Source: an uncultured Lentisphaerales bacterium
GTDB taxonomy: Bacteria > Verrucomicrobiota > Lentisphaeria > JABSQK01 > UBA12247
NCBI GenBank assembly: GCA_943788985.1
Contig: CALSSJ010000020.1
Span: forward strand, 1-64,000
Direction of reading: 5' to 3'
DNA length: 64,000 bases
The position numbers were made by a program, and so were the translations under genes. Position 1 is the first letter of the stretch. Every line of letters starts with the position of its first letter. The notes under the pieces were generated by a model that was given only the letters and a program-made list of their open reading frames with translations, did no database searches and had not been told where the DNA came from. Below, piece after piece: positions 1-21,517 of the stretch.

Positions 1-159
1 ACGATGTAAGTCCAAAGCGAGCCAACGACTGCACCCAATAGAACCGCACCGATAACGGCGCACCGATGACGGCAGATTTCGGAAACCCACGCGGAACTGC
101 CTCGACGAGATCCCGGTGGCTCTCCGGCATCAATTCCTGAAGATCGGTGTTTTTTTCAT
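1..159 (-). CDS. Integron cassette 10, partial: membrane protein running off the window edge; appears frameshifted
   Basis: ATG at 159, just inside the core site GTTCGGC (minus strand, 174-180). A hydrophobic stretch AVIGAVLLGAVVGSLWTYI is read after frame changes at an A-run and a short tandem duplication. Confidence 0.45.
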
Positions 160-173
160 AGTCTGATTTCTCT

Positions 174-220
174 GCCGAACGTCCGAGGTGTGGCTAGTCC
201 GCTGTTATGCTTTGTTAGCT
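174..220 (-). mobile_element. attC site, short/degenerate (47 bp)
   Basis: GCCGAAC (174-180) ... GTTAGCT (214-220) lies between two cassette ORFs, but the internal L boxes do not pair. Confidence 0.55.
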
Positions 221-247
221 AAGATTACAGACAAAAACAATACCGAG

Positions 248-907
248 TTATCGATCAACAATAAAGCACCCATCTTGGGAAATGGTGTTCTCATTCCAAT
301 CAATTCGATGCGCATACTCATAATCTAGGCCATAGTCCTGTGTACGAATGAAAATCACTGTAGCTGGGGTCATCGTTTCGCACTTAGCCTCTTCCATGAA
401 GTAGGTTTTTTGGTAATCAGCTGATCTCCATTCATATAGCTTAATCCTCCCGTCTTGATACCTTCCTAGTTTTCGTTCCCTAGTAACTCTGAGAGTGAGA
501 TCAGTTCCATTTATCTCTTTCCGCTCTTCTCCCTCACGCCATGGAGGTGTATATAAAAACGATGAGGTTTCACATTCAACAATACTAGCCTCAACAAGTT
601 TTCCGTAGTCGGAGATGTAATAGTATTTTGTGTGGATATGAAAAGAAAATGCCAACAAAACGAGAACCCCCAAAAAACACCATGCGTACCTCATTGGCAC
701 TTTAATCAGTATTACTATAGCACCAGACATTGCGCCAATAATGAGACCTACAAGGCCCCAAAAGATAGCGCCTAATAGCCAAAGATTCGATCCTTCCGCT
801 AGCCCAATAACTGCAGTCCATAAAAAACCCGCCACACAGCACGAAAAAGACCAGACAGTAAAATTAAATTTTTTAGGGGATGTAGGTAGTGGTGGTGGCG
901 TATTCAT
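248..907 (-). CDS. Integron cassette 9: hypothetical membrane protein (3 N-terminal TM segments plus a soluble domain)
   Basis: 219-aa AT-rich ORF bounded by attC sites. Confidence 0.75.
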   Translation of the reverse strand: MNTPPPLPTSPKKFNFTVWSFSCCVAGFLWTAVIGLAEGSNLWLLGAIFWGLVGLIIGAMSGAIVILIKVPMRYAWCFLGVLVLLAFSFHIHTKYYYISDYGKLVEASIVECETSSFLYTPPWREGEERKEINGTDLTLRVTRERKLGRYQDGRIKLYEWRSADYQKTYFMEEAKCETMTPATVIFIRTQDYGLDYEYAHRIDWNENTISQDGCFIVDR

Positions 908-919
908 AGCTGTATTGGG

Positions 920-979
920 TCCGAACGTCTGCGTTCACGCGCGCGGTATACCGCGTCGCTGTGCAACGCTTTGTTGGAT
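920..979 (-). mobile_element. attC site (60 bp)
   Basis: TCCGAAC...GTTGGAT; arms GCGTT-CAC / GTGCAACGC pair with one extrahelical base; central CGCGG-TATA-CCGCG hairpin. Confidence 0.92.
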
Positions 980-985
980 TCTCTT

Positions 986-2641
986 TCATTTTAGCTTGCC
1001 TGTTATTCTTGAGAGAGAAGGGGAATCAGCGATCTTTTTCCCGTCGGCAAGTAGTGTCAGTCCTTTACCTTTATTGTATTTCTCACCGGCCTTATCCCAG
1101 ATGATTGTCAGGATGCGGCCGTGATACAGAACATTATCCAGACAGAAGTAGTCCCACGTTTTGTCGGGGAGTAAAGGGTTCACTTCAACCACATCGTCAG
1201 ACCGTGGCCGTAGCCCGACAAGCCCTGTGATAATCAAGTCATTATATGAAGAGTGATTATAGTCCTTGCCGCGGTGGGGTCCGCCCTTGCGCGTAGCCAA
1301 ATCAGGATCGGTCTTGGCCCAGTCATGCAGGCGGGTACGAGCAATCCAGTCGCCGGTGTAGGGGTGAATGTTTTCATCGATCCATGGAACTACTTTGCCG
1401 TCTTTGCGCTTAAACTGATGGGAACGGGTGTAACACTTGAGGGTTTCGAAGTAGGCGTCCTTGCCGATGACGTCCTGCTGGTAGTTGTTGAGAAGGTTGG
1501 CGAGGGCGGTGAGGGTTGAACAGGTGGCAAGCGGCCAACTTGGGCCGTTCCATTGGCACTCGTGGCCCTCGTAGGAGAGCCTGAAATGCGGGTGGCGCTG
1601 CTCGGCGAAGGTGGGGCCGAATTTGGCGTAGAATCCCTCGGGATTCATCAGCTCCTTCCAGCCCGCCTCGTAGCCGGGGTCAGGCAGGTTGAAGTACCAT
1701 GGGGTGTAGCCGTAAAGTTCGCGCACGTCCTTAAGAGCTTCGTTTCTGGACGGGAGGTCCTTGCGATGAGGAGCAGAGAGAATTTTGAAGAACTTGGCCT
1801 CAGGATCCCAGAGCTTCTCTTGAATGAGTTTTTTGAGCGTCGAGGCTTTTTGCTCGTATTCTGCCGCGATGTCATCTTTGCCCGCCATGCGCGCGATGCG
1901 GGAAATCGCCTTGGCGTCGCCATACATGAAGCTGTTGAGCGTCGGGCGGAAGCCGTGTTTGCCGATGGAGGCCTCGCCGCCGTCGCGGTCATCGATGGTG
2001 TAGAACAGGCCGTTTGGCCGCTGGCCGATGTGAACCTGATGTTTCTTGTTCCATGGTGGCCAGACCCAGCCCTTTTCCCATGCCTCGTAGTTGTCGATGA
2101 GGTCGGGTAGCAGGTCGATTAGAAAAGGATCATTTGGGGTGACTAGGTTCCGGTTGTAGTAGGCATCTGCGATCCAGAAGCTGTAAGAGCGAAGGCTGCC
2201 GCCTTTGCGCAGCCAGAAGATGGCGTAATCATCCATGACCTTGGGGTCGTGCAGCCAGCGGCCCTCGTAGAAGTGGTGGGCGGCGGGGCAACTAATGGTG
2301 TTGTGTTTGCCCGCCCAGCTGACCTTGGGCATGAATTCGGTAACCACATAGCCGTCCTCGGTTTTCTTGATGTGTTTACGGTAGGTCCACCAGCGGAAGT
2401 AGTAAGTGCGGCGGAAGTCTTCGTCCGGGCAGTCAAAGAGGGGGATGTTGTTTTTCAGGAACGCGTAGGCATCTTTGTTTTTGATGTTGGAGAACATCTC
2501 CTCGTCATCCGCGTTGAAGCGCTCGACATACTCTTCCAACTTAGCTGTTGTCAGAACAAATGCCTTTGTTTCGGTGGCAGGTGACCAGCCAGACGTTGTA
2601 ACCGACGCCACAATTAACGCGATGAGTTTGAGTGTGTTCAT
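986..2641 (-). CDS. Integron cassette 8: secreted (alpha/alpha)6 glycoside hydrolase, MGH1/GH63-like
   Basis: Signal peptide from M at 2641; motifs YYFRWWTYRKH, HHFYEGRW, DDRDGGE, VRELYGYTPWYF, CQWNGPSWP, DYNHSSY; flanked by matched cassette ends ATCCAAC/GTTGGAT. Confidence 0.8.
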   Translation of the reverse strand: MNTLKLIALIVASVTTSGWSPATETKAFVLTTAKLEEYVERFNADDEEMFSNIKNKDAYAFLKNNIPLFDCPDEDFRRTYYFRWWTYRKHIKKTEDGYVVTEFMPKVSWAGKHNTISCPAAHHFYEGRWLHDPKVMDDYAIFWLRKGGSLRSYSFWIADAYYNRNLVTPNDPFLIDLLPDLIDNYEAWEKGWVWPPWNKKHQVHIGQRPNGLFYTIDDRDGGEASIGKHGFRPTLNSFMYGDAKAISRIARMAGKDDIAAEYEQKASTLKKLIQEKLWDPEAKFFKILSAPHRKDLPSRNEALKDVRELYGYTPWYFNLPDPGYEAGWKELMNPEGFYAKFGPTFAEQRHPHFRLSYEGHECQWNGPSWPLATCSTLTALANLLNNYQQDVIGKDAYFETLKCYTRSHQFKRKDGKVVPWIDENIHPYTGDWIARTRLHDWAKTDPDLATRKGGPHRGKDYNHSSYNDLIITGLVGLRPRSDDVVEVNPLLPDKTWDYFCLDNVLYHGRILTIIWDKAGEKYNKGKGLTLLADGKKIADSPSLSRITGKLK

Positions 2642-2658
2642 GTGTAGCTCTTGTCTAA

Positions 2659-2767
2659 ATCCAACGTTAAGGGTGAGTTTCGCGGAAACCAACCATAACT
2701 ATTGCGCGTGCATTTGATTTCAAAATAACCGAGCGTTTTAAGCGTAAACTCTAACCTCTGGTTGGAA
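2659..2767 (-). mobile_element. attC site (109 bp)
   Basis: ATCCAAC...GTTGGAA; arms GGTGAGTTTCGC / GCGTAAACTCTAACC; abuts the stop codon of the next cassette gene. Confidence 0.88.
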
Positions 2768-2768
2768 A

Positions 2769-3350
2769 TTAGTATGTTATAAGCTTTAGATAGCAGAGAT
2801 CTGATTCTTCACTCACGAGTAAGCGAATACATTTTAGCTCAGTCTCTGATGAGTAGTATTCGTTTATTTTCATGCTTTCAGGTCTCCACCAATAGTAGTG
2901 AGCCCTCATCTGTGCCGTGACTGTATAGTCAGTCAGTTCTTTTGGGGTCAATGAAAGATCATTGATAATCTGACGTTGCACTTGTGGATCAGCATGAAAT
3001 CGAAATGATCCATCATAATCCAGCCAGGCTCGTGCTCTATAATACAGGTGGTCGACATCATAATCACCGATGCGATTGATAAAATGTTTCTGATGTGAAG
3101 TTCGGGGAGGAAGGTCATAGTAATCAAGGGGGGTTATGACGATAAGTATAGCTGTAATCCATGATGCTCTCTTAAAGCTTCTTCGATTAATGAGAAAAAG
3201 TAAAATGAGAGGAATGGAGCAATATACCGAGAAGTATAAAAGAGTCATATGCGGAGGGCTTCCAAAAAAGAAAACATGGGTTGCTCCATATGCAAGCACA
3301 AGTGAAATGACAAAGAGTGTATGAGCAATAATGGAAAAAAATCTACGCAT
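2769..3350 (-). CDS. Integron cassette 7: hypothetical membrane protein
   Basis: ORF with 3 hydrophobic segments. Start taken at MRRFF because the longer ORF runs into the attC. Confidence 0.75.
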   Translation of the reverse strand: MRRFFSIIAHTLFVISLVLAYGATHVFFFGSPPHMTLLYFSVYCSIPLILLFLINRRSFKRASWITAILIVITPLDYYDLPPRTSHQKHFINRIGDYDVDHLYYRARAWLDYDGSFRFHADPQVQRQIINDLSLTPKELTDYTVTAQMRAHYYWWRPESMKINEYYSSETELKCIRLLVSEESDLCYLKLITY

Positions 3351-3374
3351 TGTATTACTTCTATTTATCTCCGT

Positions 3375-3434
3375 TTCCAACGCCAAGGTGACTCACGCGA
3401 GGAACGAGCGTTGATGTCCACCGTCTTGTTCGCG
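3375..3434 (-). mobile_element. attC site (60 bp)
   Basis: TTCCAAC...GTTCGCG; arms GGTGACTCACGC / GCGTTGATGTCCACC. Confidence 0.88.
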
Positions 3435-3609
3435 AAACCATTTTATCACAGATGAACGAATCAAAGTGCAAGCTAGACTCACCCACCGCAGCTTCGCGAG
3501 ATGCAGGGTGTGTGACAAGGGCTGGAGGGCTCACCGCTTGCCCCTCGCCAAACAAGCATCGACCGATCACCGATATGCGGGCGGCGAGGGATTGCCCCTC
3601 TTTTTCTCT
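3435..3609 (-). other. Integron cassette 6: ORF-less cassette with stem-loops and a candidate promoter
   Basis: 175 bp between two attC sites; cassette ends GTTCGCG/CGCGAAC are perfectly complementary; no credible ORF is confined to it. Confidence 0.8.
3440..3471 (-). promoter_or_regulatory. Candidate sigma-70 promoter (extended -10 TGnTAAAAT, upstream TTGCAC) reading into the downstream cassettes
   Basis: Minus strand reads TTGCACtttgattcgttcatctgTGaTAAAAT. The -35 spacing is 20 bp, so the extended -10 is the main signal. Confidence 0.5.
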
Positions 3610-3671
3610 CGCGAACGTCTGGGCTTAGAGGCGCGAGGTAACGAGCGTCTCTCTCCAGCCCTTTGTTCGAC
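3610..3671 (-). mobile_element. attC site (62 bp)
   Basis: CGCGAAC...GTTCGAC; arms GGGCTTAGAGGCGC / GCGTCTCTCTCCAGCCC. Confidence 0.88.
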
Positions 3672-3679
3672 AAAATCGC

Positions 3680-4744
3680 TCACTCTTTCGAGAAGCTGAT
3701 TTCGTGAAATGGTATTGTGTATTCAACGCGTTGATTCCCACGAATATCCCATATTTCTGCCAACAGGTTGGGCCTGTGGCCCGATAACGTAATCGTAAGG
3801 AGCCCAAAGTGATTGTCCATGATGGGACCCTCGATCCGATTCCTGTTCGGCGTGGCAAACGTCCATGTCTGTGACAGTCCACTTGCTGTGATGTCGTACA
3901 GCGGATAGCAATCGTCATGCTCGAACTTTGAAATCTCTGCGTAGTGAACATCCCCGCTAAGGACGACAAGATGATTGGCTTGCGTTTTCTTGATGAGTTG
4001 AATGAGGCGTTCTTGCTCATGCGGAAAGTTCGCCCACGCCTCATAGCCGTTATAATCGATTCCGAACTGGGTGCCCGAAGCAAGAATTCGACAGTCCGCG
4101 GGTTGGCTCAGTTCGTCTTCCAGCCAGGCCCATTGCTCTTCACCCAGGAGTGTTGCTGATTGGTTCGTATGGGGCGCATAGTCCAAATGATAAAAGAATC
4201 GTTTGGGTCTGTTGGTCTGATCTGTTCTCTTGACGAGGTCATCCCTGAACGTGCGGCCGTCCAGCAGAATGATCTGTATCGTTTTCTCTCCTACGCTCCG
4301 ATAGACCGAGTGGTAGATACCTTCGTGCTGATACCGCTCTGAATCCTTGGGTTCTTCGAAGAAGTCCAGGAAGATCTTCTTGGACGCCTCCTTGTGCGGG
4401 TAATGCTTCCCTGCATCATTCTGCCCGTAATCGTGGTCGTCCCATGTCGCGAGAATGTCGGTGTGCCTTTTCAAGTTCAGATACGAGGGCTTGGTTCCCA
4501 GTTGCCGATACTTGTTACGGAGCACATCCATATCCATGGTGTCGCCATAGATGTTGTCTCCCAGAAAGAGAAACACGTTGGGTTGATGCTTTACGACTTC
4601 ATTAAGAATGGGAAGAGGATGTCCCTGATTCCCGCACGAGCCAAAGGCTATGGTGAAAGTAGTGGCTGGGTTGGGTTCGCTTTCACCAGATGCGCACTGG
4701 CAGATGAGAAAGAGAAGAGCAAGCAGTTGTCGTGTGATCTTCAT
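3680..4744 (-). CDS. phoD: Integron cassette 5: alkaline phosphatase D family metallophosphatase, secreted
   Basis: Motifs IAFGSC, FLGDNIYGD, TWDDHDYG, LLDGR, LLGEEQWAWL, LSGDVHYAE; N-terminal signal sequence. Confidence 0.88.
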   Translation of the reverse strand: MKITRQLLALLFLICQCASGESEPNPATTFTIAFGSCGNQGHPLPILNEVVKHQPNVFLFLGDNIYGDTMDMDVLRNKYRQLGTKPSYLNLKRHTDILATWDDHDYGQNDAGKHYPHKEASKKIFLDFFEEPKDSERYQHEGIYHSVYRSVGEKTIQIILLDGRTFRDDLVKRTDQTNRPKRFFYHLDYAPHTNQSATLLGEEQWAWLEDELSQPADCRILASGTQFGIDYNGYEAWANFPHEQERLIQLIKKTQANHLVVLSGDVHYAEISKFEHDDCYPLYDITASGLSQTWTFATPNRNRIEGPIMDNHFGLLTITLSGHRPNLLAEIWDIRGNQRVEYTIPFHEISFSKE

Positions 4745-4774
4745 ATATTCTGGATGTCTTTGGATTGATCTGTC

Positions 4775-4861
4775 GTCGAACGCTTAACATCACCGGAAAA
4801 ATAATGTTGCAGAGCGAAGCGGAGCATCTTTATTTTGTCCGAGTGCATGTTTTTGTTAGAC
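4775..4861 (-). mobile_element. attC site (87 bp)
   Basis: GTCGAAC...GTTAGAC; arms AACATCACCGGAAAAATAA / TTATTTTGTCCGAGTGCATGTT. Confidence 0.88.
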
Positions 4862-4864
4862 TTT

Positions 4865-5969
4865 TTAATATTGACTTTGTATTACTAGGCTGTTTGCCAT
4901 AAGCCTAAACAGTGGATCAAATTGAGATATTTTTGCTCTTAATTCTTCCTCTGTCTCATTTGGCATTTTCGTAACCTGACACTGCAAGAAAATCATGTAA
5001 CTCTTGTATATGGCGATATACATCCTATTATACATCGTAGTATTGAGATCTAACCGTTGTGCATCGCCTATAAAATCAAGCACCGCTCCTGGCCAACGAT
5101 CGATTACAACTCTTTCTGTATTTATACTTCTGACATTGCTCATACCCATTCCATTAGCCATCTCTATGAGGCTACTTTTTGAAAATACTTCCAATGCTAG
5201 TTCTTTACTTCCCTCTATTGTTTGAAGCGCATTAATCTCTTGGCGCGTTAATTCGCCTTGTGCTTCTTTTTACAAGATCTCGCGTCATTATCAACGCTCC
5301 AGCAGGTCCTCTTCCGTTGTTGCTACTAAAATACTTAATTACATTAGGCCTATTCCCTTCCCGTTTCGACCAACTTCTTGGATATTCAATTTGTAAATCT
5401 AGCCCCTTAGATTTAGGATGCCCTTCTGTCCGATAAATAGTCTTAAAACCACGCAACAACTCATTAACTGGGTTTTCTTTAAACTGATAGATCAAAAGAG
5501 TTTCAAGTATTGGTGAAGGTATTTCGCCTGCTGCTCTTAACTTTACTTCTTCAAGAAATTGAACTGCGATATCTTGGGTTATCTGCTGCGATTTAAGAGT
5601 ATCATCTAATTGTTTTCTCATTATTGAGATAAACTCAGAATATTTATCCTTAAATAAACCCTTCAACTCTTTTTCTATATTTTTCTCAGAAGTACCAAAA
5701 GAACTATTAAATTCAAGCTCTGCTATTTTTGCCTGCAATGACAGTGTTGGGTATTCAGCCTTTATTCGATTAAGGCTGAACCTTTGTCCCATGATGAAAC
5801 CTAATGTTTTGGTAAGGTCCACATGAATCGGTTCTTTAGAGGCCTTGCCAACAGCATTTTGTGAAAAGGCAATACTTAACAAAACAATGAAAATAGAGAA
5901 AAAAAGCTGATGTATGCTCTCCCTTTTGCTGGGATGGATTTTTTTTAGTTTTATCATGAAATCGCCCAT
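4865..5969 (-). CDS. Integron cassette 4, gene 2: hypothetical exported protein, split by one frameshift
   Basis: ORFs 5232-5969 and 4865-5194 join (...DLVKEAQGELTRQEINALQ...) when one base is removed from the T-run at 5267-5271. Confidence 0.7.
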
Positions 5970-5971
5970 TA

Positions 5972-6268
5972 TTAATCATTTACTTTTTGATGATTCCAGC
6001 GATTTTTTAAATAAATTCCATTAATTATCCATAGTAATGGATTAAGGCTTATTATCGTTGCGATCAGAAATGCATATTTATTAAATTTTAATATCATTAT
6101 CATTAAGACTGTATTTATTCCAATTAACACAACTGCTAAACCAACTAAATCACTGAGCGTACCAAGCATATACAGATTACCTAAAGTTAAACCTAGCCAT
6201 GCCCATATATTCCACCATTTAAAGCCAATATCTTGGCTATCATTTACTAATTTTTGATTTTCAGTCAT
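5972..6268 (-). CDS. Integron cassette 4, gene 1: small membrane protein
   Basis: 98 aa, three hydrophobic segments, RBS GAGGGA, very AT-rich; no attC between it and the next gene. Confidence 0.75.
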   Translation of the reverse strand: MTENQKLVNDSQDIGFKWWNIWAWLGLTLGNLYMLGTLSDLVGLAVVLIGINTVLMIMILKFNKYAFLIATIISLNPLLWIINGIYLKNRWNHQKVND

Positions 6269-6292
6269 TACTATTCCCTCTTATTTTGTGAA

Positions 6293-6417
6293 GTCGAACG
6301 TCCGAGTCATCCTACGCCTGACCGAGGGCGCGCTCTGACTTCTGTGTTGATGGTTGAATGGTCATGATGCTTTCGACTCGCGGCGGGTCAGGCGTTAGGA
6401 TCGACGTCTTGTTCGCC
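6293..6417 (-). mobile_element. attC site (125 bp)
   Basis: GTCGAAC...GTTCGCC; arms GTCATCCTACGCCTGACC / GGTCAGGCGTTAGGATCGAC. Confidence 0.9.
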
Positions 6418-6428
6418 TCGTTGGTTTC

Positions 6429-6995
6429 TTACCAGTTTTCAGCGTAATAAAGAACTTCGTTTCGTTGCAGGCTGACGACCATGCCTTTGCTTTCACCGTG
6501 GTTCCAGTCATGCCCCGACCCCTTCCGGTAAGGCTCCGCATGAAAGATGAAAATCCTGTAGTCGCCTGGAAACTCGTATGTGCCCTCGGTAAGAGTGTGT
6601 GGGTGGGTGCTCCACAATCCATCATCTTGCTCATTGACAAGGGTTACAGAGTTCCCTCCGTCCTGATGCTGCTTCGCATTTTTTGTCGCGTGTTTGTGGA
6701 GGCTCTTCACTTCCGCCTCAGGAAGCTCCATTCTGAGTTGAACATGGCCGCCTCCCTGAAGAAAACCCGGGGACGAAGAAAACCTCACGGTGCGAGCGCT
6801 CGGTGGCACCGAACTGGGGAAATGATCGACTAGTCCGCTAGCCTTCCAATCTGCCAACACGTCCTGATACTCATCTATGGAACCAATTGGCTCTAGCGCT
6901 TTGTTGAAGCTGTAGACCATCCACGCAAATCCCAAGACACCCACCAGCACCAGGGCTCCTAGAATTCCGCCGATCCACTTTAGAGCACGTTTCAT
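6429..6995 (-). CDS. Integron cassette 3: hypothetical membrane-anchored protein
   Basis: 188 aa, single N-terminal TM segment, bounded by attC sites. Confidence 0.8.
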   Translation of the reverse strand: MKRALKWIGGILGALVLVGVLGFAWMVYSFNKALEPIGSIDEYQDVLADWKASGLVDHFPSSVPPSARTVRFSSSPGFLQGGGHVQLRMELPEAEVKSLHKHATKNAKQHQDGGNSVTLVNEQDDGLWSTHPHTLTEGTYEFPGDYRIFIFHAEPYRKGSGHDWNHGESKGMVVSLQRNEVLYYAENW

Positions 6996-7001
6996 TTTTC
7001 T

Positions 7002-7058
7002 GCCGAACGGCTTGGTCAGGGGCTGAGGTACGAAGTCCCTTGCACCAAAATGTTAGGC
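7002..7058 (-). mobile_element. attC site (57 bp)
   Basis: GCCGAAC...GTTAGGC; arms TTGGTCAGGGGCT / AGTCCCTTGCACCAA. Confidence 0.9.
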
Positions 7059-7384
7059 TACTGCTGTGGAGAGCCAATGCACTGGTACTTAGCTATAACT
7101 CTCCAACGAACACAGTTACCATAGCCATCGTAGGCTTGGCATTCAGACGTGGTGCCGCCAAAAGCTTCCGCACTTTGATACCCCCAAGCTTTACATCGCT
7201 GTGTTGCGGTTACTAGCCCTTGATCCCACTGAACTTGAGGTTTCTCGAACGCGCCATATGTATAGGACAGTTCAACAACACCGTCTGCGCGGCTTCCTCC
7301 TGTAGCCTGTAGTGTTTTTACACTTGTGCACCCGGTTAACGTTGTGAACATAAATAGTAGGGCGAGTAATGGCTGTGTTTTCAT
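7058..7384 (-). CDS. Integron cassette 2: YecR-like lipoprotein
   Basis: Lipobox LTGC; TGGSRADGVVELSY, RCKAWGY, AEAFGG and terminal YQC are typical of the YecR family. Confidence 0.85.
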   Translation of the reverse strand: MKTQPLLALLFMFTTLTGCTSVKTLQATGGSRADGVVELSYTYGAFEKPQVQWDQGLVTATQRCKAWGYQSAEAFGGTTSECQAYDGYGNCVRWRVIAKYQCIGSPQQ

Positions 7385-7435
7385 TTTTAGCTCTCCTTTA
7401 GTTTTTTTTGAGATTGTTGAAGATTTTCAATTGCA

Positions 7436-7534
7436 GCCTAACGCCGGAGTCCAGCGGCATTTGATGCGCCGGCCGTTTTTGCGGCAGCAAAAATGGGTGA
7501 CGGGTCAAATGTCCGCTGCAACGATTGGTTAGGT
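7436..7534 (-). mobile_element. attC site (99 bp)
   Basis: GCCTAAC...GTTAGGT; arms CAGCGGCATTTGA / TCAAATGTCCGCTG. Confidence 0.92.
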
Positions 7535-7553
7535 AAACAACCACCTAAAGCAT

Positions 7554-8111
7554 TCATTTCATTCGTGTTACGTGGAATACATGACCCTTCAAGATCATTT
7601 TGCCCTCGGCCGGACAGAGCACCACTTCGGGGTAGTATTCGTACAGATAAAGGTATAGGTAGCTCGAATCTTTCCAGATGCTTCCATCTGCGAGCATGAT
7701 TAGTTCGCCGCCGTTACCGTTGAAGGGCGTTGGCTCCTGGATGTTGGTCTTGTAGCAGGTTTGTTCTGGAGCAGGCTTAGCCTTCGGCTCCGGTTTGCCT
7801 TGGCTAGATTTGGGTTTCGCGACATCAACGTTGCCCAAATGTTTTTCGATCGACCATTTGATCGGATCCTTGCCTTCGATGTGGATCGTCACCCACAGTG
7901 GCGAAATCTCCGCCAAGAAGGACTTCCCTTCAAACAACAGGGGAGAAAATTTGAGGGACCACTTTTCAAGCAGTAGCTGCTCGCCCTTCTCCGTAACGAT
8001 GATGATGTGGTCATCATCAATCTCCGTCTGCACAAAGACTCTTTGCACGTCAGCGTACGCTTGGCTCGCAAACAGGGCGAAAGTGACCAACAACATTCTT
8101 AAGGGTGCCAT
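7554..8111 (-). CDS. Integron cassette 1 (attI-proximal): secreted hypothetical protein with two small beta domains and a K/P-rich linker
   Basis: Signal peptide ending AYA; linker AKPKSSQGKPEPKAKPAP. Confidence 0.8.
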   Translation of the reverse strand: MAPLRMLLVTFALFASQAYADVQRVFVQTEIDDDHIIIVTEKGEQLLLEKWSLKFSPLLFEGKSFLAEISPLWVTIHIEGKDPIKWSIEKHLGNVDVAKPKSSQGKPEPKAKPAPEQTCYKTNIQEPTPFNGNGGELIMLADGSIWKDSSYLYLYLYEYYPEVVLCPAEGKMILKGHVFHVTRMK

Positions 8112-8122
8112 AGAGTTTGCCC

Positions 8123-8165
8123 TTGTTTACCTAACAGTTATTCTCCTGCATATGTATTAGCGAGA
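8123..8165 (-). mobile_element. attI site, crossover G^TT at 8135
   Basis: Minus-strand GTTAGGTAAACAA (8135-8123) is the 13-bp inverted match of 7528-7540; no attC-type palindrome upstream; adjacent to the 5' end of intI. Confidence 0.8.
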
Positions 8166-8193
8166 ATATGGCATCAAATTCTTAAAGCTGCAA
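8165..8193 (-). promoter_or_regulatory. Candidate cassette promoter Pc (TTGCAG-N17-CATATT)
   Basis: Correct spacing, points at attI; weak -10 match. Confidence 0.3.
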
Positions 8194-8219
8194 GCGGATT
8201 TGGCAAGAGTTGTTGATTT

Positions 8220-8236
8220 TTGGCACAGGAGTTGCA
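8220..8236 (+). promoter_or_regulatory. Candidate sigma-54 (-24/-12) promoter for intI
   Basis: TTGGCACAGGAGTTGCA = TGGCAC-N5-TTGCA with GG-N10-GC spacing, 50-75 bp upstream of the possible intI starts. Confidence 0.65.
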
Positions 8237-8309
8237 GGGTATCATTCTACAGTGAGCGGTACGTAAACCTGCAAGGCTCCAGTATATGCCTAGGCGAATG
8301 GAGCATCAA

Positions 8310-9707
8310 ATGACCATAAATTCGAGTGTGCGCTGGCCAGCTGGGTACTTCGAGGTGTTGGATGAGGCGCAGATCCCGAAGCGGCAGCAGGGGGTTCTAT
8401 GCGCACTGGGTGCGGCAGTTCTTCGCACGTTGCTTGGGGCAGCGGCGTCGACGAGACCTGGGCCGGGCAGAGATCAATGGTTTTTCTGCAGCTTTTGGGC
8501 GAGGACGAGACAACTGCCGACTGGCAGGTCGAACAGGCCCAGGGCGCTCTCGAACTCTACTACGAGCGTTTTCGCGGCATCGCGCTGGCTTCCCGGTCTT
8601 TCACCGCGGTCGCAGTTCCGATCGGTCCACTGCCGGAGAAAGCCGCCGATATTGGCGCCAAGCGCCCGATCCCCAAGCCCCGAGGTGTGACGCCACTCTT
8701 ATCGGTTCCGGCTCCCGTCGCGGCAGTCCCTCCCGCTCGCAAGGCAGATTTGCAAGCCTTAGAGGAGGCAGTAAGAGGGGCGCTGCGTGTCGGGCACTAT
8801 GCCTACGAGACGGAGAAGACCTATGGCTCGTGGATCAAGCGCTTCGTGCGCTATCATGGGGTGCGTCGTCCGTCGGAGATGGGGGAGGCCGAGATTCACC
8901 AGTATCTGAGCCATCTGGCGATCAACGAGCGTGTTGCGGCAACAACGCAGAACCAGGCGCTGAATGCGATCGTGTTTGTCTACAAAAAGGTGCTACAACG
9001 CGACTTGGGTGACTTCAGCGATTTTGCGCGGGCCAAGGTAGGAAAGCGGCTACCAGTCGTGCTGAGTCGGACAGAGGTCCAGGCCGTTTTTGAGCCGCCT
9101 TGATGGCGACGTTGGGCTCCTGGCACGGCTCCTGTACGGAACCGGTATGCGTGTGAGTGAAGGGTTGCGTCTGCGCGTCTGCAATATCTCGTTTGATCGC
9201 AATGAGATTACGGTTCGCGCTGGTAAAGGCAATAAGGATCGCCGGGTGCCATTACCGACGGTGTTGAAGACAAGCCTGGCGTCACATCTGGATACACGTC
9301 GTGCGCTCTTCGAACGGGATCGCGTAACCAACATGCACGAGGTAGAGCTTCCGCTGGCTCTGGCGAAGAAGTACCCGCAGGCGGCCTACAGTTGGGAGTG
9401 GCAGTATGTGTTTCCGGCAGATTCATTCAGTCAGGATCCGCGAAGTGGCCGTACCCGTCGGCATCATATGCACGAGGCCCGCATCCAGCGCGGGGTGAAG
9501 CACGCGGCTAGGGCCGCAGGGCTTACGACTCGGGCGACCCCACACGTGTTGCGCCACTCGTTTGCCACCCATCTCTTGGAAGCGGGACAGGATATTCGTA
9601 CGGTTCAGGAGCTATTGGGCCATAGTGATGTCAAGACAACAATGATCTATACGCATGTGTTGAACTCTGGCCCACTCGGTGTCACTAGCCCGCTGGATAC
9701 ACTCTAA
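8310..9707 (+). CDS. intI: Integron integrase (tyrosine recombinase), ~464 aa once three +1 homopolymer frameshifts are corrected
   Basis: [39 protein letters not shown]; IntI-specific insertion [19 protein letters not shown]; shifts at G-run 8390-8394 and T-runs 8481-8485 and 9087-9091. Confidence 0.93.
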
Positions 9708-10092: not shown

Positions 10093-13000
10093 TTGACACC
10101 GATACGACAGATAGCAGGATGGACGATGATACAGGTAGTGGCACTTTCCCTGATGGGACACGCGGCGACTCTCGATGCCTTGCAGGGCGTCGAGACTCCT
10201 GATATTTCACTGAATGGTGCCTGGCATTTTCAGTTGCCGGCGCCGGTCGGTTTCTGGAAGGAACCAGCCGTATCCGCGGGTTGGAAGGCCATGCCGGTGC
10301 CCGGCGACGTCTTTCGAGGAGGCCACTTGATCAAGGAAGACGAGCCTTTCGCCTACAAGCGCAAGGTGTTGATTCCTGCGGACTACGCAGGTCAGCAGAT
10401 TCGCCTGCGCTTTGAAGGGGCGCATGAATACGCTCGTGTCTGGGTCAACGCCACCTACATCACCGAACATCAGGGCGGCTGGACGCCTTGGGAGTGCGAG
10501 ATTACCGCTGCGGTCACGCCGGGAGAGGAGGCCTGGATCGCGGTGGAACTCACGGATCTCAAGAAGGATATCGCCTTCAATGGCAAGCGGCTGCGGGCCA
10601 TTGGCGGGCTGGTCCGAAGCGTGACCCTGCAGGCCCGCCCGAAAACGATGTTCGAGTTCCCGATTGTCTCGTCGCCGTTCGCCGAGAATGGCCGAGACGC
10701 GACCTTGACTGTGGTCGGGCAGGTGGCCAGCCCCGATCCCCAGGCATCAGCATCGTTCCGGCTGTTTGATCCGGCGGGGCAGGAGGTGAACATCTCGCCA
10801 GCTAGGTGTGTGCTGGATCAGGCCCAGGTCACTTGGACGGCGTTGGTGAAGAGCCCGGAGACCTGGGATGCCGAGCATCCGCGCTTATACCGCTTGGAGA
10901 TCACTAGCAAGGCGCCCAATCAGGCCGAGGCTGTGTATTCGCGACAGATCGGATTGCGGGACATTGGCTTCGATGACAAGAAGAACCTGCTGATCAACGG
11001 CAAGGTGGTGAAACTTCGCGGTGCCAACCGGCACTTGGTGAACCCGCTGCGGGGCTTTGTCCCCGACGAGGAGATTGACCGGCGGGATGCGGAGCTGTTC
11101 AAAGAGGCGAACATGAATTTTGTGCGGACTTCACATTATCCGCCTGGCATTGGCTTTGCCGAGCAGTGTGACCGCTCGGGAATCTACATGATCCTGGAAT
11201 CGGCGGTGTTGGATGTGGGCAAGAAGAACCGCCCGTCGAAGGGGATGCACGACGACCCAAAATACGAGCATCTGTTCGTGAATCAACTGCGCGAGATGGT
11301 GCTCAATTATGGCAGTCACCCGGCGATCATCCTCTGGTCGACCTGCAACGAGAGCCTTTATGGCAAGAATATGCAGGCCTCGTACGACTTTGTGCACGCA
11401 CAGGATCCGACCCGCCCGGTAATCGCCTCGTACCAGGTGGTGGAAGACCCGGAGCATAAGAGCTACGATGTGAAGAGTTCTCATTACCCGCGGTGGGACA
11501 GGGACTACGAAGTCACAACGATGCCGACAATCTACGATGAGTGGATGCATGTGCTGGGGCATACGGCTCACGAGTGGCGGCATGATCCAAACTCCCGTGA
11601 TTACTGGGGGCGAAGCCTTGATGAAGCTTGGAGTCGCCTCTTTCCGGCGAACGGCAGCGTGGGCGCAGCAATCTGGAATTTTGTGGATGATATGACCATT
11701 CAGACGGACCCGACGCAGAAAAGTGCCCGCGGTGCGACCCGACGCATGAACCCGGAGACTGCCAAGCTGGTTGTCACCGGAAATCCCAGCAATATTACGG
11801 GGACCGCCCGTTGGGGAATTATCGACGAGTGGCGGCGGCCGAAGCCGGAATTCTGGAATGTAAAGAAGGCGTATAGCCCCGCTCGTCTGCTGAAAACCGC
11901 GGTGCGCGATGCGGATCCCGCAGCTCCCATTTCATTACCGATTCATAACCGCTACGATCATACTTCACTCGATGAGATTACGCTGGTGATGAGCTATGAG
12001 GGCAAAACGGTGCGGCTACCATGTCCATCGATTCCTCCTCACCAAAAGGGGGCGATCGAACTGCCAGCCGCAGACTGGAAGGCAGGCACGACGGTGGATC
12101 TCTCCTTCGTGGATGCGGCAGGTCGACTGGTTGACCGCTATGTGATTACCTTGGGCGAGGTTGCCGATCCCGTCGCACCGGCAGTGTCTAGAACACCGGA
12201 GGTAACCGAAGAGGATGGGAAAATCTTGGTCCAGGGCGATGCGTTTTGCTTCGTGGTGAACCGTGAAAGCGGCTTGATTCAACGCATCGAACACGATGCA
12301 GAAGTCATGAAACTTACGGGTCCGCTCCCCCATATCGTGAAGCTAGAGGAGTATCTGTATGAAGGAGTGAATCCGGCAATCGGAGCCGGGCTGAAGACCG
12401 TTATGCCCAAAACGGTCAGCTACGACAGCCCTTTGTTCAAGGCGTGGAAAAAAGACATCGATTCGGATTGAAGAAAAGGATCAGTCGGTCGAGATTCATG
12501 TGGCGGGCCGACTGGACGCGATGGAGGTGACCTATATCTACATCCTCGGCGCCAACGGGCGCTTCGATATTGCGTATCACTTCGACAAGATCCCGCCCCT
12601 TGTCGTCGAAAACAAGAAGCGCGACCGGGGTGGGCCACTGAACCTCGAAGTGGGGATCAAGTTTCCTGGCCAGTGATCAATTTGATCGCTCGAGTTGGGA
12701 CAAGCAGGCCTACTGGTCGACCTACCCGGAGGGCCACATCGGCCCGGTCCACTGGCAGCATCGCACTGTTCACAACGGATAAGCCGGAATGGGCGCAGAA
12801 GCCCGACACGCCTTGGGCCCAAGATGTCTGGGACTTCTACTTCATGGGCTGGGGTGTGCCGGGAGGCAAGCTGCTGACCTACGAGGCGTATGCGGCGAAG
12901 CAGGCCATTCGGACCTACACCCTGGAGGATACCAATGCCAGCATGGCGCTAACCGTCTATGGCGATGGGCAAAACCACTACGGCCCGTTTCGGACAGTTC

Positions 13001-13134
13001 AGCGACCAGACCTACTACCTCTACCTCCTCGACACGCTCGACTACCACCTCCGCTGGGGCAACTACAGCGCCGAAATCCGGCCTTCTGCTCAACACCAGG
13101 GCGTGGCCAGACTGGCGCTGAAGAAGGGGGCTGA
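10093..13134 (+). CDS. Glycoside hydrolase family 2 (beta-galactosidase-like); C-terminal part frameshifted
   Basis: LRFEGA, WDAEHPRLY, LRGANRH, NFVRTSHYP, WSTCNE, DEWMH, WGIIDEWRRPKPE. Coding-like sequence continues past the A-run near 12450 (…YPEGHIG…, KPDTPWAQD). Confidence 0.85.
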
Positions 13135-14718
13135 ATGATGATGGGAAGGGGCAAAGGCAAGAAGGAGCATCGTGTTGCAAGCGGGCTCTTCCTCCTCGTT
13201 CTCTGCGGCGCCCTGAGTGCCGGGGCGGAATTGTCGCTCCCCCATGTTTTCAGCGACCACATGGTCCTGCAGCAGGGAAAAGCGGTCAAGGTCTGGGGCT
13301 GGGCGACGCCCGGCCAGGAGGTCACGGTTCAGTTTCGCGGGGCTTCCGCGACGGCCAATGCCGGCGACGCCGGACGATGGGCGCTGCGTATACCATCCGG
13401 TAAAGCTGGCTCGGAGTCCTATCGCCTGCTGATCCGAGCTGGGCCAGGAGGAAATCGCCATTGAGGATATTCTGGTTGGGGAAGTGTGGCTCGCATCCGG
13501 GCAGTCGAACATGGTGTGGAAGCTGCGCCTGTCGCGGAGCCGGAGCGGGCGATCGCCGCCGCTGATCAGCCACTGATCCGGATGTTCCATGCTCCTAACG
13601 TAACGACTGAGCCGCCGCAGGACGATATCGAGGGACAGTGGACGGTTTGCTCGCCAGAGACCGCTGGCGAGTATTCAGCGGTGGCCTATTACTATGCCCG
13701 CAAGCTGCAGCAGGAGTTGAAGGTGCCAGTGGGCGTCATTGTCTCGGCCTGGGGCGGAAAACGCATCGAATCCTTTATCAGCCGTGAAACTCTTGGGGCT
13801 CGAGCTGAAACAAAGCACTTGATGACAGCGCTGCTGCGCCAGGAAAAGACCTATGATCCAGCGAAGGCGCTGGCAGCGTATGGGCAACGGAATGCAGCCT
13901 TTCAGGCTTGGATTGCTGAAGGACGCCCGGCAAACAAACCCCGCCCCATGCCCATGAAACATAAGCCTCAGCGCCCCCTGCTCACCGCCGGGCAACCGGG
14001 GGTGATCTTCAATTCGATGATCCATCCCTTCATCGGCTACGATGTGCAGGGCGCGATCTGGTACCAGGGCGAGTCCAATGCCCATATGAGCCTCTTGCCC
14101 TACGATGTCCTGCTCTCACTGTTGGTGCAGGACTGGCGCGAGCGCTGGGGCTATGATTTCCCGTTCTACTTCGTACAGCTGGCGAACTTCAAGGCGCCGA
14201 CCACGGAACCGGGTATTGAGCACCCGTGGCCCTATGTGCAAGATCGGATGCGCCGGGCCCTGGCGGTCATCTCGCATAGCGGCATGGCGGTGATCAATGA
14301 TGTCGGAGAAGAGAGCAACATTCACCCGAAAGACAAGCAAACGCCAGGCGAGCGCCTTGCCCGCTGGGCCTTGGCGAAGACATATGGAAGAAGCATGATT
14401 CATTCTGGCCCCCTATACGCATCATATCAGCGCCAGGCAGCTGCGTTGAGCGTGCGCTTTAGCTGCGTGGGCACCGGACTGCGATCCCGGGCTGGTACGG
14501 CACTGCAGCGCTTCGAAATCGCCGGCTCGGATGGTGTGTGGCAGTGGGCACAGGCTGAGATTGTCGGCGCCGACCGGGTGAAACTCAGCCACCCGAATAT
14601 TTCCGAACCGGTTGCCGCCCGCTATGCGTGGGCCAGTAATCCGACAGGCGCAAATCTGGTAAACAGCGAGGGCCTGCCCGCGTCCATATTCAGTACCGAG
14701 GACGACAACAAACAATGA
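13135..14718 (+). CDS. Sialate O-acetylesterase (SASA/DUF303) family; one frameshift near 13440
   Basis: [56 protein letters not shown]. Confidence 0.85.
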
Positions 14719-15422
14719 GACCATGCGCTGTAGCCAAGTCGCGCTTCACCCTGATTGAATTACTGGTGGTGATCGTCATTATCGCCATCTTAGCATCTCT
14801 ATTGCTGCCTTCGCTGGCGAAGGCTCGCGCAGCGGGGGCCCGGACGGCTTTTTGCCAGAATAATCTCAAGCAGATTTATCTGGCGCAGGCGCTGTACGTA
14901 AGCGAGAACAATGGGGGACTGGCCTGGACTCGCGTCGACCCAGGCGGGACTGCCCATTCGCAGACATGGATGTGGATGCTGGCGCCCGACCTCGGCCTCG
15001 ACCGTACGGAGGTCTATCCCTGGCGCGACGTCTATGTCGAGGACCTTGGCAGCAATGTCCTGGTCTGCCCCAGCGTCGAGATTGAACCGACCTACGACCG
15101 CCCCACGAACTATCGCGGATCCAAGTGGGCGGGGCATGGCAGGTATTACAACGGGTTTGACACGCCTACACAAACAGCGGCGCACCATGGGGGAGTTCTG
15201 CTGGCAAGGGTGTCAAAGCCAACAGAAGCGATGCTTCTTGGCGAGTCGAGCCAGAATGGCTACATCTACAATGGCGGTCACTTTCAAGATCCTGTCGTTG
15301 ACCGCGTGCATGCCGGTCAGTTGAACCGCCTGTTTGTGGACGGTCATGTCGGCAAGGGCGTTCTGACCAACGACTTGGACTACGTCTACTGGCATCGCTG
15401 GTCATGGTTTGACGGGCAGTGA
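14715..15422 (+). CDS. Prepilin-type N-terminal cleavage/methylation protein with an H-X9-DG C-terminal motif (DUF1559-like)
   Basis: [45 protein letters not shown]. Confidence 0.9.
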
Positions 15423-15538
15423 GAGACCGCCCGCAGCTTACATCCACCATTTCACACATGGAATTCACCGAGAACACCATGCTCGCATACGGTCGGGCGA
15501 TGGAAAATGAAGCTTTTGTTTCAAGACAGGATACCACA

Positions 15539-15805
15539 ATGGCCATGACTAAAGATCTAAAAGCCCCCAGCCAGCGCCGAACGGTCCTTTTCGGGAAATC
15601 CGAGTACACGTCTCCGACTGATGAATTGGGTCCGCTACGCGACAGCAGTGATGTCGTGGGAGATGCCCTGACGACGTATGAGTACAAGTGGTTGCGCGCC
15701 GTTGGGAATGAGGAATTCACGGGTGCGCACCTGTGGGCACATGACAATGACTTAGCCGAAAACTCTCCCCGGACAGAGCGTATCCATGAATTCATCAATA
15801 TCTGA
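15539..15805 (+). pseudogene. Internally deleted remnant resembling a phytanoyl-CoA dioxygenase family gene
   Basis: LGPLRDSSD joined directly to YEYKWLRAVGNEEFTGAH; far too short for the family. Confidence 0.4.
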
Positions 15806-16340
15806 TAAAATTCCCATCGTAGTTGGGATTCTATTGGCACTCAGTTTCGCATTTATCGGGTTTGTGTTCCTCGCCGTGGGAAGCTACCAATTCCTCCAGG
15901 GAGCGAAGAGTCAGGACTGGCCAGCAACTTCAGGAATCATTGCCCGTTCCGAGGTGAAGTCTACGAGCAGCAGAACCCGTACGTCGAAGCGCCATTCTAA
16001 GAACAAGACCCGCTATAGCGTCAGCGTTGTTTACACGTATCAGGTCGATGGCCAGGACTACGAGAACAACAGGCTGAGCTATGGCGGTAAAAAGTACAAA
16101 GCCCGGCCCCAAGCCGTGGAGGCAATGAAACCCTATAAGAAGGGAGCCAAGGTCGACGTTTTCTATTCCCCAGAAGACCCGGCGAGCAGCGTTCTCGTCA
16201 AGGGGAGTGGGACAGCTGGCGTGGCGATTGGCGTGGGTGCAATCTTGCTCTTGTTGGGCGGGGCAGCATCCATCATCATGATTGTGAGAGTAAGAAGACA
16301 TAGCGAGGGATTGCCCTCATCAGCATTCACCACGGAGTGA
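15786..16340 (+). CDS. DUF3592-like membrane protein
   Basis: TM, then SQDWPATSGII, YTYQVDGQDY, VDVFYSPEDPASSVL, then TM. Confidence 0.8.
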   Translation: MNSSISDKIPIVVGILLALSFAFIGFVFLAVGSYQFLQGAKSQDWPATSGIIARSEVKSTSSRTRTSKRHSKNKTRYSVSVVYTYQVDGQDYENNRLSYGGKKYKARPQAVEAMKPYKKGAKVDVFYSPEDPASSVLVKGSGTAGVAIGVGAILLLLGGAASIIMIVRVRRHSEGLPSSAFTTE

Positions 16341-17911: not shown

Positions 17912-18395
17912 AAAGACTCATTCCACTCAATCTCGTGGTACTTATCACCCTGTTGTCCACTTTGTCCCTGGCGAACGACAAACCGAACATCATTGTCATT
18001 ACGGCGGACGACTTGGGCTATGGGGATGTCGGCTGTTATGGCGCCAAGCCAGAAAACATCAAGACCCCGCACATCGACCGGCTCGCTGCTGAAGGCCTCC
18101 GTTTCACCAGCGCCTATACTGCTCTGCCTCCACCTGCCCCCCGAGCCATTGTGCTTTATTGCCGGGTACCCATGCCTTCCGCGTGGAAGGCTCAGGGATC
18201 GCAGAGCCGAACTCTCCCGCCTTGATTCGACCCGATGTCGTAACGCTGCCGAATCTACTCCAAAATGCGGGCGACAAAACTGCCGTCTTTGGGAAATGGC
18301 ACCTTGGTTTGGGAGACGAGAAAACGAACTGGAATAGGGAGCTTAAGCCGGGCCCACGGGACGCAGCCAGGACAATGGGAGTACGGGAACTCTAA
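17908..18395 (+). pseudogene. Sulfatase remnant (N-terminal part only, frameshifted)
   Basis: [29 protein letters not shown]; degenerate CxPxR; ends abruptly. Confidence 0.8.
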
Positions 18396-18575
18396 GCTCC
18401 TTTGGCTATCGCTCCGGTGCGCTGATGTAGCGCTCTATAGAACCACAACAAAGGGCTTCACCCGTACACGAGCCCCATGGAGAGTCTCGGGCCGGTCAGC
18501 CCAATCATTCGCGAACATGAGAAAGGAAACATCGATATGGACAAACAAGGCAGAGGAAGTGGCGGTTTGAGAGAC

Positions 18576-19229: not shown

Positions 19230-19299
19230 CCAATGAACCTGCTCAAGCGAGCGAGGCTGAACACGAAAGGACCGACAGCGAGAAGTAGGTAAGACTTGA

Positions 19300-21461: not shown

Positions 21462-21517
21462 CGTTGCCCAAAAATGACCAGCCACATCACCACAAGGAAA
21501 GAAGGAAGAATCTGAAG

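Follow-up and report, generated by a model that had tools for sequence, protein, structure and literature searches.

Chromosomal integrons such as the superintegron of Vibrio cholerae and the integrons of Xanthomonas carry an integrase gene (intI) that points away from an array of ten or more gene cassettes, all in one orientation and mostly of unknown function, and the recombination sites (attC) of such sedentary arrays bear a family resemblance to one another. In many Xanthomonas integrons intI is inactivated. The integrase cuts between the A and the C of an AAC triplet. The bottom strand of an attC site reads 5′-RYYYAAC...GTTRRRY-3′ and contains an unpaired spacer, an L box and two to three extrahelical bases opposite the AAC; the first of these bases is usually a G, the last is a conserved T, the two are 6 bp apart, and sites measure 57–141 bp (PMC5027507). 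Cassette genes have a median length of 402 nt (standard deviation 308) and carbohydrate metabolism is under-represented among them, with an odds ratio of 0.158 (PMC7370490). The largest known cassettes reach ~2 kb, Verrucomicrobia are among the integron carriers, and an integron is recognised by an attC array within 4 kb of intI (PMC4889954). Here we analyse positions 1–64,000 of contig CALSSJ010000020.1 (GenBank assembly GCA_943788985.1, an uncultured Lentisphaerales bacterium; the whole 64,000-nt stretch is called the window), in which an earlier note, made from the sequence alone, had proposed that a glycoside hydrolase (GH) gene and a phoD gene at 920–4781 are packaged as true integron cassettes. 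Our joint reading, to which we assign a probability of roughly 0.87, is that the window carries a chromosomal integron, that the GH gene and a PhoD-like gene are true cassettes, and that the GH cassette is mobile and derives from a chromosomal gene. The element resembles the sedentary chromosomal integrons in its layout, its related attC sites and its broken intI, and differs from them in its host, which is of the Planctomycetes–Verrucomicrobia–Chlamydiae (PVC) type, in a first extrahelical base that is C or T, and in two large, putatively exported hydrolases of chromosomal families.

The cassette array lies on the minus strand and occupies window positions 1–8135, from the attI junction beside a frameshifted intI gene to position 1, where it leaves the window at its left edge. 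It comprises nine same-strand attC sites (A–I, Table 1) at 174–7534, which are nowhere more than 1.7 kb apart and start 265 bp from intI. All sizeable open reading frames (ORFs) within the first 8.1 kb are on the minus strand, and intI is oriented divergently from the array. Counted from attI, the PhoD-like cassette is the fifth (~3.4 kb away) and the GH cassette the eighth (~5.5 kb away). Because the integrase cuts inside AAC, the first six bases of an inserted cassette come from its own R box, and the remaining attC stands at its far end. With boundaries taken from the AA|C crossover points, we set the start box of each cassette against the far box of the hairpin that it carries. Over the nine cassettes 31 of the 36 variable positions were complementary, and six cassettes, including those of the GH and the PhoD-like gene, matched at all four positions (by site, A 1/4; B, C, D and E 4/4; F 3/4; and I, with the attI-side box, 4/4). 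When the pairing was permuted 100,000 times, the mean was 17.8, a total of 31 was reached once, and six exact pairs were reached twice. The two boxes of one site, taken as they now stand in the array, pair worse (1/4 for the GH site, 2/4 for the PhoD-like site); this poor match is expected if recombination cuts inside the box, and an ordinary inverted repeat would not predict it. Read along the minus strand, the GH ORF is preceded by GTTGGAT (plus strand 2659–2665) and followed by a hairpin starting with ATCCAAC (973–979), and the PhoD-like ORF is preceded by GTTCGAC (plus strand 4775–4781) and followed by a hairpin starting with GTCGAAC (3665–3671). The claim that both genes sit between attC sites with exactly complementary cassette ends is thus borne out for both; the observation made for region 920–4781 stands, with the cassette boundaries adjusted to those in Table 1.

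The GH cassette occurs in a second array. A genome scan with the GH protein returned 80 loci, the closest of which, L001, belongs to a metagenome-assembled genome labelled Opitutia and encodes a GH with 89% amino-acid identity to that of the window. It carries the same cassette, with GTTGGAT before the gene, ATCCAAC and an attC homologous to site B after it, and GTTCGAC at the end. By blastn, window positions 2666–961 align with L001 979–2678 at 87.5% over 1707 nt and nothing aligns beyond; the cassettes flanking the GH in L001 differ from those in the window, and the L001 array ends beside genes for a glycosyltransferase, a pilT-like ATPase, dapA, dapB and ruvA. The same gene with the same attC is therefore found in different arrays with homology ending at the boxes, and this was seen for the GH cassette only. 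The ratio of non-synonymous to synonymous substitution rates (dN/dS) is 0.095 between the window GH and L001 and 0.095–0.123 among the three closest copies, at dS values of 0.55–1.0; the cassette form is therefore old, shared and under purifying selection. We take this as comparative proof that the GH cassette is a mobile, selected unit.

On the plus strand, which we folded with DNA parameters, each hairpin lies between NNNNAAC and GTTNNNN. The AAC and GTT boxes are invariant in all ten aligned sites. Site B, the GH cassette's own, shows, from the boxes inward, a TCT/TT spacer, 5 bp, a bulged C, 3 bp, a bulged T, 3 bp and a bulged T; the arm opposite the AAC holds every bulge. Site E of the PhoD-like cassette shares the TCT/TT spacer and the 5-bp L stem but is less canonical, its extra bases being irregular and mainly on the 3′ arm. 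At the upstream boundaries, site C has a bulged T and a 6-bp run, after which the stem branches, and site F has three differently spaced bulges on the 3′ arm. The computed fold of site D has C, 2 bp, T, 3 bp and T on the 3′ arm, so that first and last are 5 bp apart. The arrangement in which the first and the last bulge are separated by 6 bp and the last is a T is present in B, G, H and the GH attC of L001 (C, 6 bp, T); the first extrahelical base is a T in site C. Bulges on the 3′ arm identify the plus strand as the bottom one, in agreement with the directions in which the cassette genes and intI run. Taken together, the sites share with the canonical attC-aadA7, VCR2 and attC-oxa2 the boxes, the spacer, the L box, two or three bulges opposite AAC, the 6-bp spacing, the last T and a similar length (47–125 nt, compared with 57–141), and they differ in the first extrahelical base and in shorter spacers of 2–5 nt (PMC5027507).

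Two further analyses bear on the sites. Over the ten-site alignment the R and L helices are paired at 79.6%, compared with 31–50% for slid partners, and the L-box helix has compensatory changes in all eight pairs with a covariation score that none of 500 shuffles reached, the structure being derived from those same ten sequences; RNAalifold on five sites gave no consensus structure, and the structure was written by hand. A covariance model (R1), whose training set comprised only the five sites not bounding the GH and PhoD-like cassettes, was run over the whole window with filters off. In the 128 kb searched, its top two non-training matches are site E (E value 0.022) and site B (0.25), which supports these two and says little on C and F; the latter rest on geometry and box complementarity. 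Over 1.84 Mb of the loci, R1 found the site after the GH in L001 with an E value of 0.0035. An R1 match in another locus (L033, 2390–2528, E value 0.17) starts inside the GH ORF with no evident hairpin and was judged to be chance. A second model (R2), built from ten sites, recovered only its own training sites in 984 kb; since it placed the upstream site of L001 (929–986) at an E value of 5.3 with filters off, its silence on other loci is weak evidence. Loose scans for AAC...GTT hairpins gave many matches outside the array and were dropped as not discriminating.

The integrase gene beside the array is recognised by the NCBIfam profile TIGR02249 (integron integrase). Its C-terminal half scores 302.7 bits (cut-off 265; profile positions 112–315) and its N-terminal half 118 bits (positions 4–112) in a different frame, and the two matches abut at 112, so that the gene is split by one frameshift. 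An alternative with three frameshifts was rejected, as the ORF 8399–9103 spans the N-terminal half in one frame and the profile confirms only one. In the N-terminal half (8399–8770), ~100 residues, a possible N-terminal extension, precede the profile match, and a second open frame from 8286 overlaps it. With its reading frame broken, the array is probably frozen unless some other integrase acts in trans; the frameshift lies beside a run of five T residues and could be an assembly error. Frames of up to 1527 amino acids (aa) are intact in other parts of the window, which speaks against generally poor sequence. The proposal that the two genes lie in true integron cassettes is upheld by the box complementarity, the attC-type hairpins and the adjacent IntI, and for the GH also by the second array with homology ending at its boundaries. 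Since polysaccharide-degradation and housekeeping genes flank the integron, it is chromosomal, and we read window 1–9707 as a chromosomal integron, a typical element with atypical cargo.

Table 1 Features of the integron and its neighbourhood in window coordinates. Own-box, complementary variable positions between a cassette's start box and the far box of its own hairpin; kcal/mol and z, folding energy and folding z score; GC3, G+C content at third codon positions; TM, transmembrane
Feature	Position	Strand	Remarks
GH cassette, 1739 bp	926-2664	-	own-box 4/4, GTTGGAT vs ATCCAAC
GH142-type glycoside hydrolase, 551 aa, N-terminal signal-like segment	986-2641	-	PF22422, PF03633
PhoD-like cassette, 1165 bp	3616-4780	-	own-box 4/4, GTTCGAC vs GTCGAAC
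Short PhoD-like metallophosphatase, 354 aa, N-terminal signal-like segment, no twin arginine	3680-4744	-	PF09423
attC site A, degenerate, of the cassette with a 219-aa ORF	174-220	-	AAC/GTT boxes; z +0.6; no bulges
attC site B, the GH cassette's own	920-979	-	-18.1 kcal/mol, z -5.3
attC site C, of the upstream cassette with the 194/205-aa ORF; bounds the start of the GH cassette	2659-2767	-	-14.2 kcal/mol, z -2.4
attC site D, of the ORF-less cassette	3375-3434	-	z -0.6; R1 training site
attC site E, the PhoD-like cassette's own	3610-3671	-	-12.4 kcal/mol, z -1.8
attC site F, belonging to the three-ORF cassette; start boundary of the PhoD-like cassette	4775-4861	-	-14.5 kcal/mol, z -3.8
attC site G	6293-6417	-	z -2.2; bulged C, 6 bp, bulged T
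attC site H	7002-7058	-	z -1.9; bulged C, 6 bp, bulged T
attC site I, of the first cassette	7436-7534	-	-29.2 kcal/mol, z -6.3; T bulge only
attI-side junction box, ACCTAAC on the plus strand	8129-8135	-	pairs with site I's far box; located between intI and the first cassette ORF
Integron integrase gene (intI)	8399-9707	+	TIGR02249; frameshift near 9095-9103 beside a T5 run
Membrane-type ORF cassette, 194 aa (ATG) or 205 aa (TTG)	2665-3380	-	low GC, GC3 0.349, two TM-like segments
ORF-less cassette, 235 bp, no ORF of at least 50 aa	3381-3615	-	exact own-box complementarity
Three-ORF cassette, 1518 bp, ORFs of 109, 245 and 98 aa	4781-6298	-	ORF GC 0.28-0.37
Polysaccharide-degradation genes: GH2, SASA-type esterase, sulfatases (two ORFs), GHL15, BD-FAE esterase	10093-24524	+	Pfam
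AraC regulator, end of the polysaccharide cluster	23622-24524	-	Pfam

Recombination presumably produced this array. An IntI-type tyrosine recombinase encoded at 8399–9707 would once have inserted circular cassettes at attI (~8135) through recombination between attI and the folded attC bottom strand of each cassette, with the cut between A and C of 5′-AAC-3′. At least ten cassettes would have piled up head to tail on the minus strand, among them two large single-gene cassettes, one for a putatively exported GH142-type glycosidase and one for a putatively exported short PhoD-like metallophosphatase. At some point, a chromosomal gene for a carbohydrate-active enzyme (CAZyme) would have gained an attC and joined the cassette pool, as is suggested by the GH lineage branching from chromosomal Verrucomicrobiota genes.

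The assignment of the larger gene as a glycoside hydrolase was borne out by Pfam (PF22422 at 233.9 bits, PF03633 at 40 bits) and sharpened to GH142-type by an end-to-end alignment with residues 604–1101 of the PDB entries 5MQR/5MQS (E value 1.5e-122, 409 bits). The entry 5MQS is the GH142 beta-L-arabinofuranosidase BT_1020, in which Glu694 is the putative catalytic residue (10.1101/2020.03.26.009860). The equivalent of Glu694, in a TEF motif, is kept in the window GH, and nearby aligned Trp and His residues are also conserved. The window GH aligns over its full length with the C-terminal domain of the Bacteroides thetaiotaomicron protein but differs from BT_1020 in having no N-terminal domain and in being cassette-borne instead of lying within a polysaccharide utilisation locus; it is probably, by its sequence, a stand-alone, exported beta-L-arabinofuranosidase.

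PhoD of Bacillus subtilis is exported by the twin-arginine translocation (Tat) pathway. The PhoD-like protein of the window shares with it (2YEQ) the metallophosphatase domain, 201 residues (74–274) aligning with an E value of 2.9e-9 and with the WDDH and GDVH motifs in register, and it differs in its length, 354 aa compared with 527 in the solved chain, and in the lack of a twin arginine. The gene had been called phoD in the earlier note. The PhoD-like metallophosphatase domain is well matched (PF09423 at 77.8 bits, cut-off 27), while equivalence to characterised PhoD does not hold, as the PhoD equivalog NF058638 of NCBIfam scores 42.1 bits, far under its cut-off of 1000; the safe name is PhoD-like, not PhoD. 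Its homologues number 6636, the named ones being mostly from Verrucomicrobiota; the closest are 91%, 83% and 81% identical, and one at 77% carries the name of Oceaniferula spumae. An N-terminal hydrophobic segment was found by a crude hydropathy measure in the GH, in the PhoD-like protein and in 9 of 10 cassette ORFs overall, which fits the reported enrichment of signal peptides among cassette proteins (16.1% vs 6.8%; PMC10661359). Of the proposal that the integron samples secreted enzymes, the hydrophobic segments are thus observed, and export itself is predicted from them. Both enzymes are presumed to be exported, active and expressed, and their substrates are assigned provisionally.

We examined the relatives of the GH gene for further cassettes. 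The GH family is large (7551 of 8000 candidates scored significantly), and its named matches come from Verrucomicrobiota and Planctomycetota. Only in L001 was there an attC-like hairpin within 220 nt after the GH stop codon, the other 79 of the 80 loci having none, and no IntI was found within 6 kb in any of the 80. The second closest GH, at 86% identity, lies in a locus labelled Akkermansiaceae (L002), where a hairpin before the gene (147–239; −18.4 kcal/mol, z −4.7) has T, 6 bp and T as its bulges and an R2 E value of 0.11; the locus may represent a cassette in decay, the end of an array or an intermediate of cassette formation. From the third closest GH onward, identities are at most 81%. 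A FastTree tree of 79 rows, from which L045 and L074 were omitted (best aligned segment <400 residues), groups the window GH with L001 and L002 (support 99); the sister of this clade (support 100) is L003, a longer chromosomal Verrucomicrobia GH gene followed by a gene read as fabI-like. On the question, raised by the earlier note, of whether the closest GH homologues are cassette-borne or chromosomal, L001 is cassette-borne, and the more distant ones look chromosomal. In L002 a convergent PhoD-like gene (2213–3283), 43% identical to that of the window, lies downstream of the GH; as this adjacency was found in 1 of the 80 GH loci only, we do not claim a functional link between the two genes. 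A plasmid search with both proteins yielded large replicons that carry distant homologues only, none reaching 60% identity (28 records for the PhoD-like protein, 5 for the GH). One of these replicons, the 235-kb plasmid NZ_CP012644.1 of Rufibacter tibetensis, has PhoD-like (41%) and GH (41%) homologues ~60 kb apart, at 136889–137860 and 196547–198082.

The composition of the two genes is that of the host. The GH has a GC3 of 0.694 (host mean 0.677, standard deviation 0.033) and a codon-adaptation index, calculated from 23 window genes, of 0.732 (host mean 0.714, standard deviation 0.029), and the PhoD-like gene, with a GC3 of 0.597 and an index of 0.669, is inside the host range, compared with a GC3 of 0.22–0.37 for five other cassette ORFs. 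The GH copies in L001–L003 have the same composition as that of the window, and GC content is therefore no proof of local recruitment. The suggestion that a host-like GH was drawn from a related chromosomal gene pool holds in part: the composition is as described and the clade is nested among chromosomal Verrucomicrobiota homologues, which supports recruitment from a Verrucomicrobial chromosomal gene pool but lends no support to recruitment from this host.

In 1-kb steps, the first 8.1 kb have a GC content of 0.37–0.55, compared with 0.52–0.62 in the remaining window. Pfam matches at 10093–24524 bear out that the integron sits beside a polysaccharide-degradation cluster (Table 1), within which a 250-aa ORF (18477–19229) matches the 301-position sulfatase profile over its first 110 positions only and may be a truncated or frameshifted sulfatase gene. 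Downstream follow PSCyt, PSD1 and DUF1501 genes, families that we take to point to the PVC group, and then housekeeping genes. The named homologues of the YifB protein belong to Lentisphaeria (57–62% identity), apart from one metagenome-assembled genome labelled 'Rhodothermales' (68%), and clusters similar to TrmD are of mixed taxonomy, so that the phylum of the host within the PVC group is assigned only tentatively. Among the cassette ORFs, only three have any Pfam family, one of them a YecR-like lipoprotein (PF13992, 85.3 bits) in the second cassette (7058–7384). The ORF of 194/205 aa has no Pfam, NCBIfam or PADLOC family; the ORFs of 109, 245 and 98 aa have no Pfam or PADLOC family, and the 245-aa ORF has none in NCBIfam either; for the seven cassette ORFs without assignment, PADLOC gave no family. 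Two of the ORFs in the three-ORF cassette contain membrane-type segments, and the 235-bp cassette holds a terminator-like hairpin on the plus strand (3579–3600).

In view of the published surveys, both the size and the function of these cassettes are unusual, as had been claimed, although their size is still inside the known range. Cassettes of plant-associated bacteria have been linked to the use of plant-derived carbohydrates and to cell-wall degradation (PMC11089894), and CAZyme genes are carried by mobile elements that include integrons (10.1101/2025.02.12.637893). Cassettes for secreted proteins and for plant-carbohydrate functions are already in print (PMC10661359, PMC11089894). Full-text searches, from which subscription journals were absent, yielded no paper that presents a GH142 or PhoD-like cassette in its title or abstract; the surveys may list some in their supplementary tables.

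Several results weigh against the reading of the two genes as true cassettes, and they can be set beside an account in which both are ordinary chromosomal genes and the hairpins are unrelated repeats or terminators that resemble attC. Hairpins of the AAC...GTT type are common by chance, and our structural descriptor, which finds five of the nine window sites, was passed by 10 of 300 random 220-nt pieces. An Rfam scan of the window gave tRNA only and no attC match. The small leave-out model R1 is weak, with site F at an E value of 2 amid chance matches and site C unlisted at E ≤ 10, and the z scores for folding are only modest at sites E (−1.8) and C (−2.4), with null values at A (+0.6) and D (−0.6). 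The first extrahelical base is a C, not the usual G, in B, D, F, G, H and the GH attC of L001 (2660–2715), and a T in the hairpin of L002; as a G is described as usual (PMC5027507), this is a difference and no exclusion, and it may point to an attC/IntI pairing that is lineage-specific in PVC bacteria. Both genes have host-like GC and belong to large chromosomal families. No second context for the PhoD-like cassette was found among the 80 GH-based loci; in L002 the PhoD-like gene is not cassette-borne, and an attC-like hairpin lies upstream of the GH only, with none downstream. Against chance resemblance, however, stand the own-box complementarity, the one-arm bulges with 6-bp spacing, the single orientation directly beside an IntI gene, and the hairpins that accompany the GH in a different array, where the homology stops at the boxes, none of which it explains, and we consider it very improbable. 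An assembly or binning artefact that joined the DNA of two organisms in the array or at its junction with the chromosome would account for cassettes at 1–8 kb with a GC of 0.28–0.54 next to 0.52–0.62 elsewhere in the window, and integron arrays are repeat-rich and hard to assemble. Mixed GC is, however, normal in cassette arrays, intI, with its host-like GC, forms an unbroken link from the array to the GH2 cluster, and proteins identical to the window GH are found on 5 contigs, the longest of 129 kb. Such an artefact, which would have no bearing on the cassette status of either gene, is hardly to be expected here.

A different objection concedes that the cassettes are real but regards them as silent, decaying cargo of a dead integron whose enzymes add nothing to nutrient acquisition by the host. 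The frameshift in intI and the distance of the genes from attI, with the GH eighth and the PhoD-like gene fifth, agree with this account, as does the partial degeneration of site A and the flanking sites. No sigma-70-like promoter precedes the GH or the PhoD-like gene in a scan for the sigma-70-type consensus only, and the region holds 5 sigma-70-like sites compared with a shuffle mean of 11.1. The restriction of the promoter scan to that one consensus also limits what its outcome says, and the single frameshift beside a homopolymer could be an assembly error. Both ORFs are full length and keep their family motifs, GC3 and codon use are host-like, and the GH shows a dN/dS of ~0.1 at dS values of 0.55–1.0, all of which speaks against silent cargo. 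On balance, we consider it unlikely that the cassettes are without function and retain the reading as true cassettes, of which the GH cassette is mobile and under selection.

The definition of the integron is unchanged by these results, and no resistance or virulence function is involved. What they add is mainly the comparative evidence for the GH cassette as a mobile, selected unit: the cargo is unusual, while the kind of element is known. The locus provides a concrete, testable case that integrons can recruit a mainstream chromosomal CAZyme gene and then move it among environmental bacteria, so that their cargo can include feeding enzymes as well as resistance genes. The series formed by L003 (chromosomal), the window and L001 (cassette) and L002 (upstream hairpin only) could bear on how cassettes form. 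A broader proposal, which we hold tentatively and regard as rather doubtful at present, is that polysaccharide degraders of the PVC group have a pyrimidine-first attC subtype and that their integrons shuttle large exported CAZymes and phosphatases from Verrucomicrobial chromosomes between classes or phyla as a regular process, under selection. If this were true, integrons would join polysaccharide utilisation loci, plasmids and conjugative elements, to which the shaping of CAZyme repertoires has been ascribed until now.

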